Below the pieces are notes generated by a model, which did no database searches, was not told the DNA's origin, and saw nothing but the letters and a program-made list of their open reading frames with translations. Both the position numbers and the translations under genes were made by a program. From assembly GCA_951406725.2 (NCBI GenBank), contig OX597827.1, forward strand, positions 75,578,001 through 75,642,000: DNA of 64,000 nt. The letters run 5' to 3'. This stretch comes from Octopus vulgaris (lineage: Eukaryota). Positions 4,223-53,501 of the stretch are shown one piece after another. Each line of letters opens with the position of its first letter. Position 1 is the first letter of the stretch.

Positions 4223-4393
4223 TCCATGAATTCGTTAAATAAATCCGACATATTCTCATTGTCCTCGGTTTTCACTTGATTTAAAATGATATCGAGTGAT
4301 TTCCGAGATTTATCTTCGGGGGTTTTTTTCTGTTTGAATCTCATTCTTGTTCTCGATCGAAATTAATGAATGACTCAAAAGATGATCAATAAT
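4223..4393 (-). pseudogene. Internal fragment of the CARD-only gene, frameshifted
   Basis: Close copy of about 6578-6746. Translates IIDHLLSHSLISIENKNEIQTEK / PEDKSRKSLDIILNQVKTEDNENMSDLFNEFM, with T7 vs T6 in a homopolymer (frameshift). Cut at 4394 by a MITE terminus. Confidence 0.85.
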
Positions 4394-5570: not shown

Positions 5571-6495
5571 ATGACTTGTACATATTCAGACTGAATACAT
5601 TTGATGAAATTTTCCAGAGATTCGTTATAGAAGGTGCAGATTACAATGGTCTTGATAAATTTCTTTTCATGAACTTATTCTTAGTCTACACTATTGAAAA
5701 CGTTTTTCTAGAAAACTCCATTAAAGACACACATTTCAAGAAACAACATCGATGGAACACATTCTGTAGCTATGCTAGTACAGTTAAATCCATCATATAC
5801 ACATGTCTGTATCCTAAAGAAAATTCATTGCCGAACCACTTTACCATCAATAAATACCATGTAACATGCCTTTCTATCGTTATCATACTCTGCAACAACC
5901 CAAAGTAAACCTTTATTCACTTAGTGTTTGAAAATTAAAGATTCATCCAACTACATTCACTTACCATCTCAACAGGTTTATTATCATCAATACAGAATAA
6001 TTTCCAAAATATTACATCATTGCGTTGAAGTTCGTTGTTTTCTTAGTGAGTTACCGACAAATAAGACCGTCACTATTTCCAGTTCACTTATAATGATTGA
6101 TATTTTCCATAATCAAACAAAAAAAACAATTATGTTGTTTATCATTAAAAAAAAAATAAAAGGCTTTTTGTCTGAAATACAAATAATGAACGAACGAAAG
6201 TACTGCATACATCCGCATTTGATAAGATGTCACTTAAAGCCGACAACTTTCCAAATTGAAAGGTGAAAGTAATCTGTCCGTTGAAAAGTATTCGATAATT
6301 AAAATATAATGTCTGTTAATAATGCATAATATATATTATATATAAGAAGAAAAAAAACAGCAATGAGCATTTTGTTGATATAAACAAACAACTTTGTCAG
6401 AACTGTGCGGTTTTTTCCCTCTCTTTTTAAAACTATTCAATACATTAAAGTGTCTCATGTGCATCAAGATACGAACCAGATTCATGTCCCCTCTG

Positions 6496-6843
6496 TTACA
6501 TTAGGGCCGCGAGTGTTTCTTCCTCCTCAAGTGTCTCCATCAATGATGCCAAATTTCTGTTGACTTCATTTAGAACTTTCATGAATTCGTCAAATAATTT
6601 CGACTTATTCTCATTGTCCTCGGTTCTCACTTGATTTAAAATGATATCGAGTAATTTCCGAGATTTATCTTCGGGGGTTTTTTCTGTTTGAATCTCATTC
6701 TTGTTCTCAATCGAAATTAATGAATGACTCAAAAGACGATCAATAATCTTTTTTATACCCACACTATCTAAACTCTTCACAAGAACCTCATAATATCGCT
6801 GAATTATCTTTGCATTCGACATTTGCTGTAAGGCAGCCATCAT
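6496..6843 (-). CDS. CARD-only protein (115 aa), paralog of the CARD-DD genes
   Basis: Intact ATG-TAA ORF with CARD pattern IIQRYYEVLVKSL..IIDRLLSHSLISIENKNEIQTEKTPEDKSRKLLDII..FDEFMKVLNE.NRNLASLM. Aligns end to end with the N-terminal half of the ORFs at 21228, 51200 and 52818. Confidence 0.8.
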   Translation of the reverse strand: MMAALQQMSNAKIIQRYYEVLVKSLDSVGIKKIIDRLLSHSLISIENKNEIQTEKTPEDKSRKLLDIILNQVRTEDNENKSKLFDEFMKVLNEVNRNLASLMETLEEEETLAALM

Positions 6844-6913
6844 GCTCCGTGTCTGTTTGTAAAATGTTGGCGGTTGAATTTCTTAACTACACAACTACGC
6901 ATGTGCCTGCACG

Positions 6914-6920
6914 TTTTATA
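6914..6920 (-). promoter_or_regulatory. Candidate TATA box (TATAAAA) about 70 nt upstream of the CARD-only ATG
   Basis: Plus strand ttttata at 6914-6920; position plausible, but the background is AT-rich. Confidence 0.3.
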
Positions 6921-7430
6921 TTTTTCCATATAAGCAGAAAAGAACTGTTTCCTGATTGGGTGAATCTCAAAACTCTTCAATTTCAAATTTTGTTCTTTTC
7001 GGGGGTTTACTTCCCCAATTTTTCTAATATTGTACATTTGCTTCGAAATGGCCTAGTTGGATGCTAACATTCTAGGAAAGTTAACTCGTATCTCTCTTTC
7101 TCCAGTCCTAGCTTTTCTACCGTCAGATTCGGCCCACAACTTCTCTAATAACCAGCATCATGATGGCCTAGTTGGATGCTTCAGAAATGTAAATAAACCC
7201 AATATGTTTCTTAAACAAGGGACATTTTCAACCAGGCTATCCACATGCTAGAAATAACAGCCAAACCTCTCCAAACTGCGATAACAATGCAATCATTTGA
7301 CTCATCTTTCTGCAAAGATTTTTTTCAAAGTAATTTCCCATAGTAATATGACAAAGTAATTCATGTGAAATTAAAGTGGGTTTTTTTTAAAAGCTTCTTT
7401 TCATAATCAGATCTTCCATTACCAAACAAC

Positions 7431-7609
7431 GACAGTCTTCATTTCTATTAAATTTAGGGTTATAAAATATATTTTAAATGTATAGAATTAAATGAAATTA
7501 TAGCGGTTGATACTAAAGCAAAAAGATATATATTTTTATCATAGAAAAATTTTATGTAAATATCAAAAAGTGAAGGGTTTTAGTCGACAATAAAAATAAT
7601 GAAGGAAAG
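7431..7609. repeat. Orphan copy of CARD-DD gene 3' flank
   Basis: Near-identical to 20743-20923 (gacagtcttcatttctattaaatttaggg...taatgaaggaaag), with no adjacent coding sequence of its own. Confidence 0.8.
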
Positions 7610-21227: not shown

Positions 21228-21923
21228 TTATTCTTCCATCTCTTCTTTTAAAAAATCCTCAATAGATTTACAGACATCATTCATGTCTATATTGCAATGA
21301 TCAGAAAAGCGATTGATGGCTTTTATAAGTTTTGTTAATGCACCACGCCCATGGGCTTGTTTTTTTCTCCAGGAATTAAATGCCTCAAACTTCTGGTTAC
21401 GTGTGCAGTATGGGTTGTCTTGCCTAACATTATCAATTTTTATGCTCTCAATACCTAATTCAGCAGCAACAGATTCCCATCCAGAGCCCATATGCTTCAA
21501 AATACGATTTAACAGTTTCTCAGACAAATCTATATGTTTAACATGTTCAAGGATATTATTTATGTTAAGTTCGTCATTCGGCACACTTTCGTCATTCGGC
21601 ACACTGTCATCAGCATTTTCCACGGTTGATGCTAAACTCGGGTTATGTTCTCTTAGACATTTCACAAATCCATCGAATATTTTTGACTTATTCTGTTTAT
21701 CCTGGCTTTCCACTTTGCGGTGAATAACGTCTAGTAATTTCCGAGCTTTTTCTTGTTCAGTATCTTCTGCTTGAATTACATTCTTTTCCTCGTCATTGAT
21801 AAACGATTGAGATAAAAGACGATCAACCATGTTATTTATTGTCACATCATCAAGCCCATGCACAAGATCATTACGACATCGTTTAATTTTAATTGAGTTC
21901 CCGAGCTGCTGTTTGTTAGCCAT
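21228..21923 (-). CDS. CARD + death domain adaptor protein A (231 aa, RAIDD/CRADD-like architecture), intronless
   Basis: Residues about 8-102 form the CARD (IKRCRNDLVHGL..VDRLLSQSFINDEE..TEQEKARKLLDVI..FDGFVKCLRE.NPSLA), followed by an acidic linker. Residues about 130-222 form the DD (LSEKLLNRILKHMGSGWESVAAELGI..NQKFEAFNSWRK..LTKLIKAI). Confidence 0.85.
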   Translation of the reverse strand: MANKQQLGNSIKIKRCRNDLVHGLDDVTINNMVDRLLSQSFINDEEKNVIQAEDTEQEKARKLLDVIHRKVESQDKQNKSKIFDGFVKCLREHNPSLASTVENADDSVPNDESVPNDELNINNILEHVKHIDLSEKLLNRILKHMGSGWESVAAELGIESIKIDNVRQDNPYCTRNQKFEAFNSWRKKQAHGRGALTKLIKAINRFSDHCNIDMNDVCKSIEDFLKEEMEE

Positions 21924-27393: not shown

Positions 27394-28104
27394 CGAGGCT
27401 AGGACTCGCCATGGAGTGAATATTCGGCAGCTTTTAACTGTTTGTTCCAACGCTTCATCTTTGTATCCCGCAAGTCTGGCCAATCTCCTGATGTGGCAAA
27501 CACGTCGACCTCTTCACTCGTCCACTTTGCTTTCCCCAGTGAACCATATGCCATAAATGACCCTTCCGTAAAAGCCTCTATCAGCCGAACATCTATTTTT
27601 TCTTCGCTTAACTGGTCCTTCTCCTCTATTTCCAGGTATAGTGCCAACGCCGATCCATCGAGGTACAATGGAATGAAACTCGATAGGTCATATATACCGT
27701 GGTGTCTTGCCACCAACTTAATTTTTATCAACCAAGCGGCGGTGTCTCCCTCGCCGCAAAATAGCCTAAACGTCTCGTTCGAAACAGGAACCATACCAAT
27801 CATTTTTTTTTTTTTTCTTTTTGAGCCGAAATAGCTTGTGATGTGAAGGAGGAAAAGACAGAAGCAGAGGGAGAATTGCGGTAGTCTTACCTATCGATCT
27901 GGAAGGGTCACTCACAATGTCCGCATACTCTGTCTGTCGCCGTACCATCTAACAGGTCTGCTCTCGTACGCTATCCACTGCCAACTTACTGCTTACATTT
28001 CGCCAACACCGCATGCCCACTGCGGCCATTCTGGTGGGACCCACAGTCCCCACTTCCGACAGGACATGCGTACTACCTTAGTTCCGGTCCTTCTCTACAC
28101 TACA
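27394..28104 (-). mobile_element. Gypsy LTR retrotransposon 5' LTR (27837-28104) + gag fragment
   Basis: LTR homologous to 579-848; gag-like ORF 27399-27803 (FCGEGDTAAWLIKIKLVA..FIPLYLDGSALALYLE). Confidence 0.75.
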
Positions 28105-28219
28105 GAATCAAAAGGTAATCGATGATTCTTTGTATAGTCACACTTTCAAAACTCTCCACAAGTTCCCTATAACTTCGCTGAATTATAGTTGTATTCAACA
28201 ACTGCTGTATTCCAGACAT
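28100..28219 (-). pseudogene. 5' end of a CARD-family paralog disrupted by LTR insertion
   Basis: Translates MSGIQQLLNTTIIQRSYRELVESFESVTIQRIIDYLLIL* (cf. MAALQQMSNAKIIQRYYEVLVKSLDSVGIKKIIDRLL). 5' flank 28220-28306 is homologous to 21924-21995 and 6860-6898. The stop is supplied by the LTR start. Confidence 0.85.
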
Positions 28220-28399
28220 CGTGTTCTAAGTATGCTTTGACATTCAGTGTTGTATGTGGGTAAACACGGAAATGTTTGCTGGTGAATTTCCTAACTACAC
28301 AACTACATCTGTAGAAAGCTTTGTAGCAGGTATATTTTGAACGGAAATCAACTAGAGTTGTTCCGTGAATATTTTCTTTTGGCGCTAAAATACAAGTTT

Positions 28400-30306: not shown

Positions 30307-31270
30307 GTGAATGGCAAACTGCCAAGCAAGCTGAAGGAGGGAATAATATGCCCAATACATAAAGGGAGAAGTAGAGCAGATGCCAAAAACTATAGGCCTA
30401 TCTCTCTGACTTCACACATCAGCAAAGTCATGGAACGGATAGTCAGAAAGAAACTAATCGCATTCCTTGAGGAAAATAACTTGCTGAGTAATACCCAGCA
30501 TGTAGGAGCTGCCTGACCCAGCTCTTACAACATTATGACTGGGTGTTGAGGCAGTTACTCAACAAATCAAATGTGGACGTAATCTACCCTGATTTTGCAA
30601 AAGCTTTTGACAAGGTGGATCATGGTATGATATGCCACAAACTACGTGACCTCAGCATAGCTGGAAAACTTGGAGTGTGGTTGCATGACTTCCTGAAAGA
30701 TAGGAGTCAGGCAGTAGTGGTTAATGGAGCCAACTCTATGAACACACAAATAGTGAGCGGTGTTCCACGGGGCACTGTCTTGGGACCACTGCTTTTTATA
30801 GTGGCCCTCTCAGATATGCCCTCAAATGCCCGGATAGCCACTCTGGCCAGCTATGCAGACGATACGAAAGTCTCGCAGAAAATACAGAACCCCAGCGATG
30901 TTGCACACCTGCAGCAGGAGTTGGACTCAATCTACAGATGGGCTGAGGATAATAATATGCAGTTTAATGCTGAAACATTCCAGGCCCTGCACTACCAGCA
31001 TCCAAAACTGAATATTAAACTTACAGGATACACCAGTCCACAGGGAATTTCAATCCCAGAGCCTAAGTCTGTGAGGGACCTGGGTATCGACATGAGTGAT
31101 GATACCTCTTTCCAAGTGCACATTACCAGGATGGCGACAAAGTGCAGACGACTGGCTGGGTGGATCCTAAGAACATTAGTCTGGCGGACATTCGTCCTCA
31201 GTCGCCTGGATTACTGCTCACAGCTATGGTCACCCACCAGTGTAAAATTAACAGCAGACCTTGAAGAAAT
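30307..31270 (+). mobile_element. LINE reverse transcriptase fragment (CR1/L2 group)
   Basis: [56 protein letters not shown]; frameshift near 30510. Confidence 0.9.
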
Positions 31271-31313
31271 ATATATATATATACATACATATATATATAC
31301 ATACATACATACA

Positions 31314-31347
<34 letters not shown>

Positions 31348-31353
31348 CATACA

Positions 31354-31387
<34 letters not shown>

Positions 31388-31404
31388 CATACATATATAC
31401 ATAC

Positions 31405-31441
<37 letters not shown>

Positions 31442-31648
31442 CACATATATATATACATACATATATATATACATACATATATATATACATACATATATAT
31501 ATACATACATATATATATACATACATATATACATACATATATACATACATATATATATACATATATATATACATACATACATATATACATACATACATAT
31601 ATACATACATACATATATATATATACATACATACATACATATATATAT

Positions 31649-31681
<33 letters not shown>

Positions 31682-31707
31682 CATACATACATACATACAT
31701 ACATACA

Positions 31708-31739
<32 letters not shown>

Positions 31740-31745
31740 CATACA

Positions 31746-31777
<32 letters not shown>

Positions 31778-32045
31778 CATACATACATATACATACATAT
31801 ATACATACATACATATATACATATATATATACATACATACATATATACATATATATATACATACATACATATATATATACATACATACATACATACATAT
31901 ATACATACATACATATATATATACATACATACATATATATATACATACATACATATATATATACATACATACATATATATATACATACATACATATATAT
32001 ATACATACATACATATATATATACATACATACATATATATATACA

Positions 32046-32077
<32 letters not shown>

Positions 32078-32322
32078 CATACATATATATATACATACAT
32101 ACATATATATATACATACATACATATATATATACATACATACATATATATATACATACATACATATATATATATATACATACATACATATATATATACAT
32201 ACATACATATATATATACATACATACATATATATATATATACATACATACATATATATATACATACATACATATATATATACATACATACATATATATAT
32301 ATATACATACATATATACACAT
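31269..32322. repeat. Compound (TA)n/(TACA)n microsatellite, about 1.05 kb
   Basis: Directly visible; explains the stop-free I/Y/H/T and M/Y/V/C ORFs. Confidence 0.98.
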
Positions 32323-34426
32323 GATTGATTGATTGATTCTAGTTTCAGCTTATGAGCTGTGGCCATGCTGGGGCACCGCCATTTGGTGTTGCTACTTGGT
32401 TTCACTTCATGGAGGCTTTCTAGCAACTGCTATTTGGTGCATGAGAGAGTTCGATGCAGCTGCTCTCATCTGCCCCTCCTGCCGTGAAGTTGGTTCATCT
32501 GGGACACCTGACAGGAAGAGATCCAGCTCCATTTTAAAGACATCTGTATCCACCCCATGCAGGTCTCTCAGGTTCTTCGGGAGGATATTGAAGAGCTGTG
32601 GGCCTCGGAAGCCCAGGCTATCACAGAATCTTGTCCTACATCTTGATGGCAAGTTTGGAGTCCTAGGCACCACGCAGTGGCGCCCAGTTCTGGCATTTGC
32701 GTAACTCTCGATGCCAAAGTTCAGGACACTTCCCTCCAGGATCTTCCAGATGTATATTATGGCATATCTTTTCCGCCTACGCTCCAGGGAATATAATTTT
32801 AATCTCTTGAGTCTTTCCCAGTAGCTTACATTCTGCATAGAGGCTATCTTCTTCGTGTAGCTTCGTTGGATCGCCTCAAGTTCTGTGATCAACTTGACAC
32901 TGGATGGTGACCATAGCTGAGAGCAATAGTCAAAGTGGACAAGTGTCTTCCAGAGGACCATCATGGTTTCTTGTTCTCTTGTTCTAAAGGTTCTAAGAAT
33001 CCATCCAGCCAGCCGTCTGCATTTCATTGTCAGTTTAGCAACATGTACATGAAAGGTCGCGTCATCACTCATGTGAATACCCAGGTCACGCACTGATTGT
33101 GCCTCTGGGATTGCAATCCCTCCGGGTCCAGTGTATTCCTTGGGTATTGCATTCAGTTTTGCATGCTGATAGTATAAAGCTTGAAACTTTCCAGCATTGA
33201 ACTGCATGCTATTGTTTTTAGCCCACTTGTATATTTCGTCCAGCTCACATTGCAGGTGCTTAGTGTCCTCAGGGTTCTGTATTGCCTGTGAAACTTTTGT
33301 ATCGTCTGCATAACTTGTGATCGTGGCTCTCTGCGTGGCTGAGGGCATGTCTGAGAGGGCCATTATGAACAGTAGTGGTCCCAGAACAGTGCCCTGCGGA
33401 ACACCGCTCACTATTTGTGTTTTAATGGAGGTGGCCCCATTGGCTACTACCACCTGACTTCTATCCTTCAGAAAGTCATGAAGCCATTCTCCCAGTTTTC
33501 CAACTATGTTGAGATCACGCAGTTTGTGACATATCATTCCATGATCGACTTTATCAAAGGCCTTTGCAAAGTCGATCATTCCATGATCGACTTTATCAAA
33601 GGCCTTTGCAAAGTCGAGATATATCACTTCCACATTTGAGTGGTTGAGCAGCCGTTTCAGCACCCAGTCATAGTGTTGTAGGAGCTGAGTTAAACAGCTT
33701 CTCCCTGGTCGGAAACCATGTTGGGTGTCGGGCAGCAAGTCATTCTCTTCAAGGAAGGTGATCAGCTTCCTTCTGACTATTCGTTCCATGACCTTGCTGA
33801 TGTGTGAGGTCAGAGAGATAGGTCTATAGTTCTTGGCTTCCGCTCTGCTACCTCCTTTATGAATGGGGCATATTTTACCTTCCTTCAGTTTTCCTGGAAG
33901 TTTGCCAGCTGCAAGGAAGCTCTGAAAGAGGAACTGCAGTGGTCTTGCTAGGACTCTCTTACATGCTTTTAGGAGGATTGCCGGGAATCCATCAGGGCCA
34001 GTAGCTGAGTCTGTTTTCATTTCATCTATAGCCTTCGTTACATCGTCTTCCTTTATATCGATGTAATCTATCGTCGCCGCCTCTGATTTTATATCTGCAG
34101 TGGTAAAAAAGTCAGTTGGATTGGTGATTTGGAGATGCCCAAGGGGTGGAGTGAAAACACTCTTGAATTGCTCATTCAGTATTTCACTTACCCTCATTGG
34201 TTTTCCTGTAAGTGTGCCATCCTTTTCGAGGAGTGGCCCTATTCTACAGTGCACTGTAGCTGTTTCTTTGGCATACCTGTAGAAAGCTCTGGGGTTAGAT
34301 TTTATGTTTTCTATAGCCCAGGCTTCTTTGTCTGCTCTTTCTTTTTCATGGGAGAGTTGCAGACATTTTTCGATTTCCAACAGTTTTATTTTTAGGCGGG
34401 ACTTTTCACTGCTTTCAATCTGTTTG

Positions 34427-34428
<2 letters not shown>
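32323..34428 (-). mobile_element. LINE ORF2 3' half (RT to C-terminus, 3' UTR, (ATCA)n tail), same family as 30307-31270
   Basis: Open frame from about 34428 to 32407 with [57 protein letters not shown]; tail tgattgattgattgatt at 32322-32338. Confidence 0.9.
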
Positions 34429-36820
<2,392 letters not shown>

Positions 36821-36822
<2 letters not shown>

Positions 36823-37216
36823 TAGCAGTATCGCCCGGCGTTGCTCGGGTTTGTAAGGGAAATAACTATATAAGCATTTCTAGAGATGTAAAGTATAATA
36901 GCCATCTCAATATGGCTAACCACAAAGGGGAGGGGTGTTACTGTAGCTTTTTACGTTCTGAGATTTAATAATAAATTTTAGAGAGTTACTTCCCTTATAT
37001 ATGTCAAAAATGGATTAAAAATGGGAAAAATTGATGGTAAATTTTTTTTTAAATCGTAGACTCATCGTAGACGTGCGCTAATACCCAGACGGTCTCGATA
37101 TGAATCACGACTATAAGATACCCGGTTTTGGTTAAACTGCACCGCAAAATGTGGGAGTAGTTAGGAATCTAAATCGTAGGAGACAGACACACAACCTCAC
37201 TTTTATATATAAAGAT
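36821..37216 (+). mobile_element. Non-autonomous Helitron-like element
   Basis: Starts ACTAGcagtatcgCCCGGCGTTGCTCGGG (hairpin) and ends gacagacacac..ttttatatataaagat, an architecture seen in invertebrate Helitron-derived repeats. Confidence 0.55.
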
Positions 37217-51199: not shown

Positions 51200-51856
51200 T
51201 TAAGGGTCTTCAATACATTCAAGTATTTTATTCATGTTGAAATTGCAATGAACAGAACAGTAATTGATGGCTTTTATAAGTTTTGTTAATCCACCACGTC
51301 CAAGGGTTTCTCTTTGCCTCCAGAAATTAAATATCTCAAACATCTGGTTTCGTGTGCTGTGTGGGTTGTTTGCCTTAGCAATACTAATTTTTACGCTATC
51401 AATATCTAATTCGGCAGCAACAGATTCCCATCCAGAGCCTATAAACATCAAAATACGATTTAACATTTTCTCATTCAAATCTATATTTTTAACACGTTCA
51501 AGGATATTACTTTTGTCACTTTCGTCATTCGGCACACTGTCATCAGCATTTTCCACGGTTAATGCTAAACTCTGGTTATGTTCTCTTAGACATTTCACAA
51601 ATCCATCGAATATTTTTGACTTATTCTGTTTATCCTGGCTTTCCACTTTGCGGTGAATAACGTCTAGTAATTTCCGAGCTTTGTCTTGTTCAGTCTTTTC
51701 TGCTTGAATTACATTCTTTTCCTCGGAGGTGATAAACGATTGAGATAAAAAATGATCAACCATGTTTTTTATAGTCACATCATCAAGCCCCTGCACAAGA
51801 TCCATACGACATCGTTCAATTTTAATTGAGTTTCTGAGCTGCTGTTTGTTAGCCAT
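51200..51856 (-). CDS. CARD + death domain adaptor protein B (218 aa), recent paralog of A
   Basis: Intact ORF collinear with 21228-21923; CARD KARKLLDVI..FDGFVKCLRE and DD IGSGWESVAAELDI..NQMFEIFNFWRQ. Confidence 0.85.
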   Translation of the reverse strand: MANKQQLRNSIKIERCRMDLVQGLDDVTIKNMVDHFLSQSFITSEEKNVIQAEKTEQDKARKLLDVIHRKVESQDKQNKSKIFDGFVKCLREHNQSLALTVENADDSVPNDESDKSNILERVKNIDLNEKMLNRILMFIGSGWESVAAELDIDSVKISIAKANNPHSTRNQMFEIFNFWRQRETLGRGGLTKLIKAINYCSVHCNFNMNKILECIEDP

Positions 51857-52817: not shown

Positions 52818-53501
52818 ATGGCTGACACACAAGAAGTTTTCAATGGGAACAAAATTCAACGAAGTTACAAACAACTTGTGGACGGCATCGATGAAGTAGT
52901 TATAGGGTCAATACTTGATTACTTCTTTGCAAGTTCAATCTTCATTCCGGAGGAAGTGCATACTGTTGAAGCAGAGCCAATTATAGAAAGAAAAAATCGA
53001 TGTTTTCTCAATTTCCTTCTTGAGAAAATGAAACATGAGGACAGAAGTAATATTTCTAGGATATTTGATGAATTTTTGAAGTGTCTGAGAGAAAGCGAAT
53101 TAGATTCTTTGGCCACACTCGTGGAAGAAACTGACAATTCACCGTTGGTAGACCTAGAAGTGGATGCCATTATTGATAGTACTAAAGATTTAGATCTAGA
53201 CGAGAAAATGCTTGCTCGTGTCTTAATGCATGTGGCTAGTGGTTGGGAAGCTGTAATTATCGAATTAGGTCTTGATTTTGTGAAAATTACTGACGCTAAG
53301 GAAACTGATAATGAGTTCATACAGAAGTTCAAAGTATTTAATACCTGGAGACAAGCAGACGGTCTCTTGCCTGGTGCAGTAGTAAAACTTTTGACAGCGC
53401 TCAGAGAATTTCCAGAGATTGTAAACTGGAGCAAAATGAAGAACACTATTGCCATAGTTCACCGAGAAATGGAAGCTGGTTCAAGTACGAGTCCTTCTTA
53501 G
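52818..53501 (+). CDS. CARD + death domain adaptor protein C (227 aa), divergent paralog
   Basis: Start placed by homology (MADTQEVFNGNKIQRSYKQLVDGI). CARD ..FDEFLKCLRESELDSLATLVE and DD LDEKMLARVLMHVASGWEAVIIELGL..QKFKVFNTWRQ..VVKLLTAL. In-frame upstream ATGs at 52638 and 52764 cannot be excluded. Confidence 0.82.
   Translation: MADTQEVFNGNKIQRSYKQLVDGIDEVVIGSILDYFFASSIFIPEEVHTVEAEPIIERKNRCFLNFLLEKMKHEDRSNISRIFDEFLKCLRESELDSLATLVEETDNSPLVDLEVDAIIDSTKDLDLDEKMLARVLMHVASGWEAVIIELGLDFVKITDAKETDNEFIQKFKVFNTWRQADGLLPGAVVKLLTALREFPEIVNWSKMKNTIAIVHREMEAGSSTSPS

Follow-up and report, generated by a model that had tools for sequence, protein, structure and literature searches.

A CARD-only gene carrying a death-domain scar in a tandem array of octopus CARD-DD genes: a candidate decoy

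How a tandem array of two-domain death-fold genes came to hold a transcribed copy encoding one domain only, and what such a copy might do to its neighbours, are the questions raised by a locus of Octopus vulgaris. The window analysed is a 64,000-nucleotide stretch of DNA (G000:C14:75578001-75642000), and the gene, here termed X, is a 115-codon open reading frame (ORF) on its reverse strand (6843-6496), a CARD-only member of an array of single-exon, CRADD-like genes that otherwise encode a CARD followed by a death domain (DD). Its product matches the Pfam CARD family (E = 2.6e-9) and has no Death match, and an AlphaFold model built on an eight-row alignment (mean pLDDT 71.8) has six helices; together with an unspliced mRNA ending at 5961, these describe a lone six-helix CARD. 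Translation likely begins at the second ATG (6840), which aligns with the starts of the paralogs, the first ATG being missing in one sequencing run (X16).

The array was examined over 264 kb, consisting of the window and 20 further stretches, and includes seven CARD-DD-type genes: paralogs A (21228-21923, reverse strand, 231 aa), B (51200-51856, reverse strand, 218 aa) and C (52818-53501, forward strand) within the window; D, E and F upstream of it; and the divergent G approximately 91 kb upstream. Pfam identifies both CARD and Death in A and B, which thus have the N-terminal CARD and C-terminal DD of CRADD/RAIDD adaptors, unlike X. Paralog C has only a CARD match below the cut-off, yet aligns over its full length with A and B; D is protein P0003, named CRADD in the NCBI entry for O. 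vulgaris. The pairs B-C (window 51856/52818) and E-F (L004/L005) are each arranged head-to-head, possibly sharing bidirectional promoters. Alongside these genes lie X and four broken relatives: psiX1, a full-length copy around 1.5 kb before the window start with three stops and 77% amino acid identity; psiX2 (4225-4393, reverse strand), an internal piece of the CARD that carries a frameshift and shares 95% identity with X; H1 (28105-28306, reverse strand), a 5' fragment of an X-like gene comprising some 37 codons and the 5' flank, 74% identical to X and followed by unrelated sequence; and H2, a second 5' fragment of the same type. The D/H2 and A/H1 regions are recent segmental duplicates of one another, with 96-99% identity. 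One and the same insertion (27399-28104 at H1) interrupts both H1 and H2 after some 37 codons; it includes a 134-aa ORF that has no Pfam match and looks retrotransposon gag-like. Reverse transcriptase-like frames, presumably LINE-like, are found at 30627-36856, broken up by long TA/CA microsatellites, and a 190-nt piece upstream of X (7422-7609), which shares 96% identity with the 3' UTRs of A and D, is a displaced UTR fragment. In a genome search the 3' end of X was single-copy, and neither the 115-aa nor the 114-aa form of its product is present in the protein collection.

Transcription of X was assessed using sequencing runs, of which 24 were listed: 17 had the stretch or part of it and six at least half of its words, none being recorded as RNA. 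Contigs from eight of these were aligned to the window, and their RNA status rests on poly(A) and oligo ends in run X6 and on gene-limited cover in runs X7 and X10. In run X6, an X-type contig (seven differences in ~365 nt) has a 21-nt poly(A) at 5961, a site that is not A-rich and lies below an AATAAA signal (5982-5977), and a 5' loose end at 6858 in this run is presumably a template-switch oligo motif. Runs X7 and X10 cover approximately 5962-6884 in pieces, with most unique flanking bins empty, and run X2 provides one 940-nt contig over 6017-6898. In runs X1 (30/30 bins covered) and X2 (27/30) there is background cover, and neither served by itself as evidence of expression. A spliced connection to an exon further downstream was rejected, as no splice joint is listed at X and the 940-nt contig is continuous. 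X is transcribed as an unspliced, polyadenylated mRNA, with expression, which an earlier, sequence-only reading of the locus had proposed to check, established at the mRNA level only. The 3' UTR extends over 6495-5961 on the reverse strand. Run X6 also includes the 3' ends of paralogs, and so X and its paralogs occur in one library. Transcript 5' ends fall at 6858-6898, downstream of a TATAAAA motif (6920-6914), in a segment (6858-6920, reverse strand) resembling the 5' flanks of H1, H2 and E, not those of A, B and D; no strict NF-kB site is claimed upstream of X, where the sequence was read by eye.

The region beyond the stop codon preserves what was lost. The sequence-only reading had interpreted a shifted frame there, NLVRILMHM (6456-6482, reverse strand), as a relic of DD helix 1, now within the 3' UTR. 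This holds: its score against a DNA profile of six paralogs was reached in none of 2000 dinucleotide shuffles, and the best register, +32, has a score of 7.6, the runner-up reaching -5.8 and the colinear register -9.6. The relic matches gene C at 19/27 nt over its codons and at 18/24 over the last eight, the latter as originally stated. A protein profile was marginal, its score being equalled by 80 of 3000 shuffles and by 40 of 3000 random local windows, around one third of which were the paralogs themselves. Directly adjoining the relic, again as claimed, is the end of a full-length gene (6370-6455, reverse strand), comprising its final codons, its former stop (6429-6427) and the proximal part of its 3' UTR, homologous to B and D; 6370-6451 is 76% identical to the last codons and 3' flank of B (E = 5e-10). 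Relative to B, X is colinear through the CARD; the displacement is 32 nt at the helix 1 relic and 243 nt at the last codons and beyond. The deletion of roughly 250 bp of DD first proposed is therefore close in total, but 211 nt, between relic and last codons, are DD, the other 32 nt, between CARD and relic, being linker and the start of the DD. The junction (6455-6458, reverse strand), at which approximately 3 nt fit either side, is bridged at 6455/6456 by contigs from six of the eight runs aligned (X2, X6, X7, X10, X15 and X16), leading to the rejection of an assembly artefact; run X17 is without cover there and run X1 without a piece among those listed.

The stop codon has a history separate from the larger gap. 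It lies at 6498-6496 on the reverse strand, 40 nt upstream of the 211-nt gap, which consequently cannot have created it. A single in-frame deletion of 243 nt, with the DNA after the stop colinear to B, was likewise rejected, given the scores of the colinear and +32 registers. The copy psiX1 ends at the same place, reading L-N-stop where the paralogs have K-N-I-D-L, and its next letters encode I-D in a shifted frame. The stop of X thus probably arose through a separate loss of 2 nt at the N-I-D motif of the paralogs, a comparison of around 9 nt that is not significant alone; we infer, from few bases, that this loss combined with a linker shorter by 30 nt would account for the 32-nt shift. The relic portion of psiX1 alone gave no significant alignment, and as the DNA of psiX1 past the first bases of the relic has been replaced by other sequence, this copy does not date the large loss. 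The original proposal, that a CARD-only gene formed by internal deletion of the DD, survives in one half: X does derive from a CARD-DD gene, because the outgroups, Argonauta (P0013) and other molluscs, have that architecture. The other half requires amendment, the gap not being the source of the stop, and a fusion of two tandem genes may apply in place of a deletion.

Such a fusion, between the 5' half of an H-type gene and the 3' end of a downstream A/D-type gene, would replace the internal 211-nt deletion at the junction; we regard it as a tentative alternative, short of even odds, that concerns origin only and is independent of function. The 5' flank of X matches those of H1 and H2 (86-89% over 37 nt) and E, not A, B or D, whereas in the 3' UTR and flank X is separated from A, B and D by a mere ~0.20 substitutions per site (~83% identical in aligned columns). 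Synonymous sites of the CARD differ at 28/61, a contrast with the flank that gives a Fisher P of 5e-6, or 0.01 after calibration on E. A and D have H fragments upstream of them that share their orientation, and the helix 1 relic is not nearer B (20/45) than C (26/45). Yet the dN between the CARD of X and that of B (0.39) equals that between the DDs of E and B (0.39), and their UTR distances are alike (0.20 and ~0.23), such that one split around the time of E also fits. Moreover, A, B and D may have acquired a new 5' flank later, and the 3' half of an H gene was not found in the 264 kb. The mosaic could alternatively go back to a single ancient split, after which promoters changed and A, B, D and E underwent gene conversion with one another. 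The CARDs of these four genes are homogenised (dS 0.02-0.12, dN/dS 1.3-4.3), their DDs differing more, and in the O. sinensis protein P0004 an A/B-type CARD is followed by a C-terminus of E type; both observations suggest gene conversion and diversifying selection of the kind seen in immune genes.

An orthologue of X is present in O. sinensis, where RefSeq protein P0001 has the same CARD (93% identity across 89% of the query) and ends in the same way, and the name eIF4G-like is a misnomer; the ORF is thus intact in a related species, the kind in which the sequence-only reading had proposed to check its conservation. In a tree of CARDs, the X clade is sister to A, B, D and E together with O. 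bimaculoides B-type proteins, Argonauta falling outside; the supports are 93/93, 89/94 and 87/96, none of them starred. The position of X within the family has a support of 93/93, again not starred, and the array on C14, the tree and the DD relic all place its duplication next to its parent. This topology suggests that the lineage of X predates the split from O. bimaculoides, placed at ~34 Mya in PMC10700109, which gives 2.5 Mya for O. sinensis. No orthologue outside the O. vulgaris/O. sinensis group was found in protein searches, including those of O. bimaculoides proteins. Judging by shared position, the stop dates back at least to the duplication that gave X and psiX1 (11% nucleotide divergence), several times the divergence between alleles. 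A longer X-type protein with an intact DD was sought without success among 435 candidates, which is weak evidence, and among the best 150 of 184 profile matches by length and score, of which 15 sequences were read. Two distant relatives among ENA or representative proteins, P0040 and P0046, likewise show a CARD and no Pfam DD; the sequence of P0040 diverges from that of P0015, a CARD-DD relative, exactly at the start of the DD, which may represent a parallel truncation in another lineage or a gene-calling artefact.

Alleles of X vary in the length of an EK-rich tail, composed of KKEAEEKA units and located at helix 6 of the model (6509-6543, reverse strand). The window allele is without it, whereas insertions of 57 nt occur in runs X2 and X6 and of 51 nt in run X16, contigs of runs X7, X10 and X15 break at the site, and O. 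sinensis P0001 has an additional 69 aa including nine units. The product consequently ranges between 115 and 184 aa, these tail lengths being minima, as short-read contigs can collapse repeats. All three measured lengths are in frame, which is expected anyway since the repeat units are multiples of three. No stop or frameshift was among the variants listed in X-type contigs, and the stop codon itself is TGA in six runs, as in psiX1, and TAA in run X1, as in the window, run X17 being without cover.

Evidence of selection on X is mixed. Comparison with psiX1 gives a dN of 0.11, a dS of 0.11 and a dN/dS of 0.98, and allelic changes number 11 nonsynonymous to two synonymous (sites 241:59), as neutrality predicts. 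The dN/dS check suggested at the outset therefore shows no sign of constraint, yet the 12 changes assigned to the X branch favour less conserved columns than random missense changes (0.42 vs 0.58, P = 0.004), as do 12 allelic sites (P = 0.034); eight missense changes on the psiX1 branch, its three stops left out, do not avoid conserved columns (P = 0.23). This test was post hoc, chosen after dN/dS had been seen, and where columns are variable the assignment of changes to branches is uncertain. Simulated neutral survival of an intact ORF was 0.01-0.43 depending on the assumed indel rate, and 0.01-0.09 once indels and allele lineages were counted. As the intact CARDs of A, B, D and E also exceed a dN/dS of one, a value near one is no mark of decay in this family. 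We infer that the fold of X is kept under weak purifying selection, and on balance X is probably functional.

The function that we favour, with a probability of roughly 45%, is that of a decoy or modulator of CARD signalling in the array, X likely binding the CARD partners of its full-length paralogs without providing the DD link. In mammalian RAIDD, as outlined in PMC9162469, the DD links PIDD1 and the CARD links caspase-2, and the octopus CARD-DD genes are assumed, by analogy, to work similarly. A 2-nt frameshift at the DD start would have made the stop, the DD remnant being lost before or after, and the CARD of X would then occupy a CARD partner without itself being recruited to a DD scaffold, such that the pathway would be damped or tuned. 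Candidate partners would be the paralogs' CARDs or a CARD-caspase (the C26 cluster; L053). The EK tail may extend helix 6 as a charged helix and might set spacing or solubility. Single-exon transcripts avoid junction-triggered decay, and the layout of X would let its mRNA escape in this way; X likely yields a CARD-only protein, which would compete with its full-length neighbours much as primate CARD-only inhibitors do. In favour of a decoy are the derived CARD-only state, the poly(A) mRNA, the frame open in both the window and O. sinensis, the changes avoiding conserved columns and the three stops of psiX1; against it stand the X-psiX1 dN/dS, the 11:2 allelic ratio and a post hoc test resting on our own polarisation. 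Furthermore, X is only 44-48% identical to the CARDs of A, B, D and E and may therefore not share their partners.

The same data bear on two rival functions, or the lack of one. X may be a duplicate that, though transcribed, has no function, in an array with rapid turnover; it would have kept its promoter and poly(A) site and not yet acquired a stop. This we consider unlikely, although the dN/dS around one, the four broken relatives nearby, a neutral ORF survival of up to 0.43 and the greater number of CARD sites differing between X and its O. sinensis orthologue than between F and P0005 speak for it. The avoidance of conserved columns, the retention of a stop through a TAA/TGA change, the lower survival range of the fuller simulations and the dN/dS values of the intact A, B, D and E CARDs all weigh in the other direction. 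That X might instead be a positive signalling module seems quite unlikely; its free CARD, to which most alleles add a charged helical tail, would then nucleate or extend CARD assemblies or have a partner other than that of A and B. Deep divergence of its CARD from those of A, B, D and E (dS 0.72-0.85, dN ~0.4) would fit this, as would conserved charged positions matching filament-forming CARDs in the family profile alignment, and accounts in PMC7555848 and PMC7830601 have COP-1 and ICEBERG self-associating into filaments and overexpressed CARD16 able to activate NF-kB. However, X is without a second signalling domain, and a tail that is missing in the window allele and freely variable in length argues against its being essential.

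Further CARD loci lie elsewhere in the genome. G000 has 34 CARD matches, including CARD-caspases on C20 (L053) and C26 (L061 and probably its neighbours); the family profile scores 20.4 bits against L061 and 6.0 bits against L053, which is only a lead. Both of these are single open frames, NTCQ in L061 standing at the QACR position of L053, and several tandem CARD matches are found near L061 (G000:C26:33.73-33.81 Mb). Elsewhere, eleven tandem CARD exons (L032-L042, G000:C24:38.85-39.06 Mb) constitute a second expanded array; L051, L054, L056, L059 and L060 (G000:C26:30.94-30.98 Mb) are CARD genes followed by a repeated domain of ~130 aa, with open frames of up to 1840 aa; and L044/L048 (G000:C20:71.93 Mb), a 216-aa open frame of two tandem CARDs alone, is the best match to the array CARD profile.

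Among known systems, X resembles the human CARD-only proteins (COPs) CARD16/COP, CARD17/INCA and CARD18/ICEBERG in being a single CARD that arose through local duplication inside the parent cluster. These are described as decoys 53-92% identical to the parent CARD (PMC7830601, PMC7555848) and, according to PMC7555848, have been reported only in humans and higher primates. At 48%, the identity of X to its parent is close to the 53% of ICEBERG, for which PMC7830601 relates contradictory inhibition data at a similar divergence. ICEBERG was also the second-best PDB sequence match of the family CARD profile (E = 1e-6). By contrast, the parent of X is a CARD-DD adaptor and not caspase-1: its closest relatives are octopus CARD-DD genes and not the primate inflammatory-caspase cluster. 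X is also molluscan and single-exon, with a DD remnant in its UTR and a variable EK tail, and any inhibition by it is putative. Going by these sequence comparisons, X is not a member of the CARD16/17/18 family, being instead COP- or POP-like in architecture and origin. POP1/ASC2 is, by analogy, the nearer architectural counterpart, as a one-domain copy of a two-domain adaptor, ASC, adjoining the parent gene; it is presented as a PYD-only copy, 63-64% identical, and a negative regulator (PMC7555848, PMC7830601). POP1 differs in having kept a PYD, which faces the sensor; the domain retained in X is the one that in RAIDD faces the caspase. The array paralogs share their CARD-DD order with RAIDD/CRADD, after which databases name them, but their DD matches those of RAIDD (E = 8e-4) and RIPK1 (E = 1.3e-3) about equally, their CARD matches those of NLRC4, ICEBERG and caspase-1 and not that of RAIDD, and the octopus genes are single-exon and tandemly expanded. 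A CARD-only inhibitor of apoptosis outside primates is GIV-CARD of a ranavirus, which differs from X in being a viral gene resembling caspase-1 CARDs (PMC4457926). A search of the ESM Atlas returned generic CARD clusters only (0.88-0.90), and the open-access literature searched contained nothing on octopus CARD-only proteins or, under broader topics, on this array; a CRADD-named protein is noted in PMC11431876 to change in octopus skin mucus, its gene not being identifiable from that text.

X is easily missed, being absent from the protein collection and misnamed in O. sinensis. It would offer a simple test system, with a readable DD scar, broken sister copies as controls and natural alleles of tail length. 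The boldest interpretation, to which we attach only slim odds, is that a CARD-only brake on the expanded array of death adaptors arose independently in the octopus. The length of its charged helical tail would be set by a minisatellite within the coding sequence, and this variable spacer would tune how X inhibits or assembles; an invertebrate would thereby have converged on the COPs and POPs of primates. Host decoys consisting of a death fold alone have been described mainly in primates. If X does act as a decoy, a cephalopod case derived from a CARD-DD gene would show that the braking of death-fold signalling by decoys evolves repeatedly.
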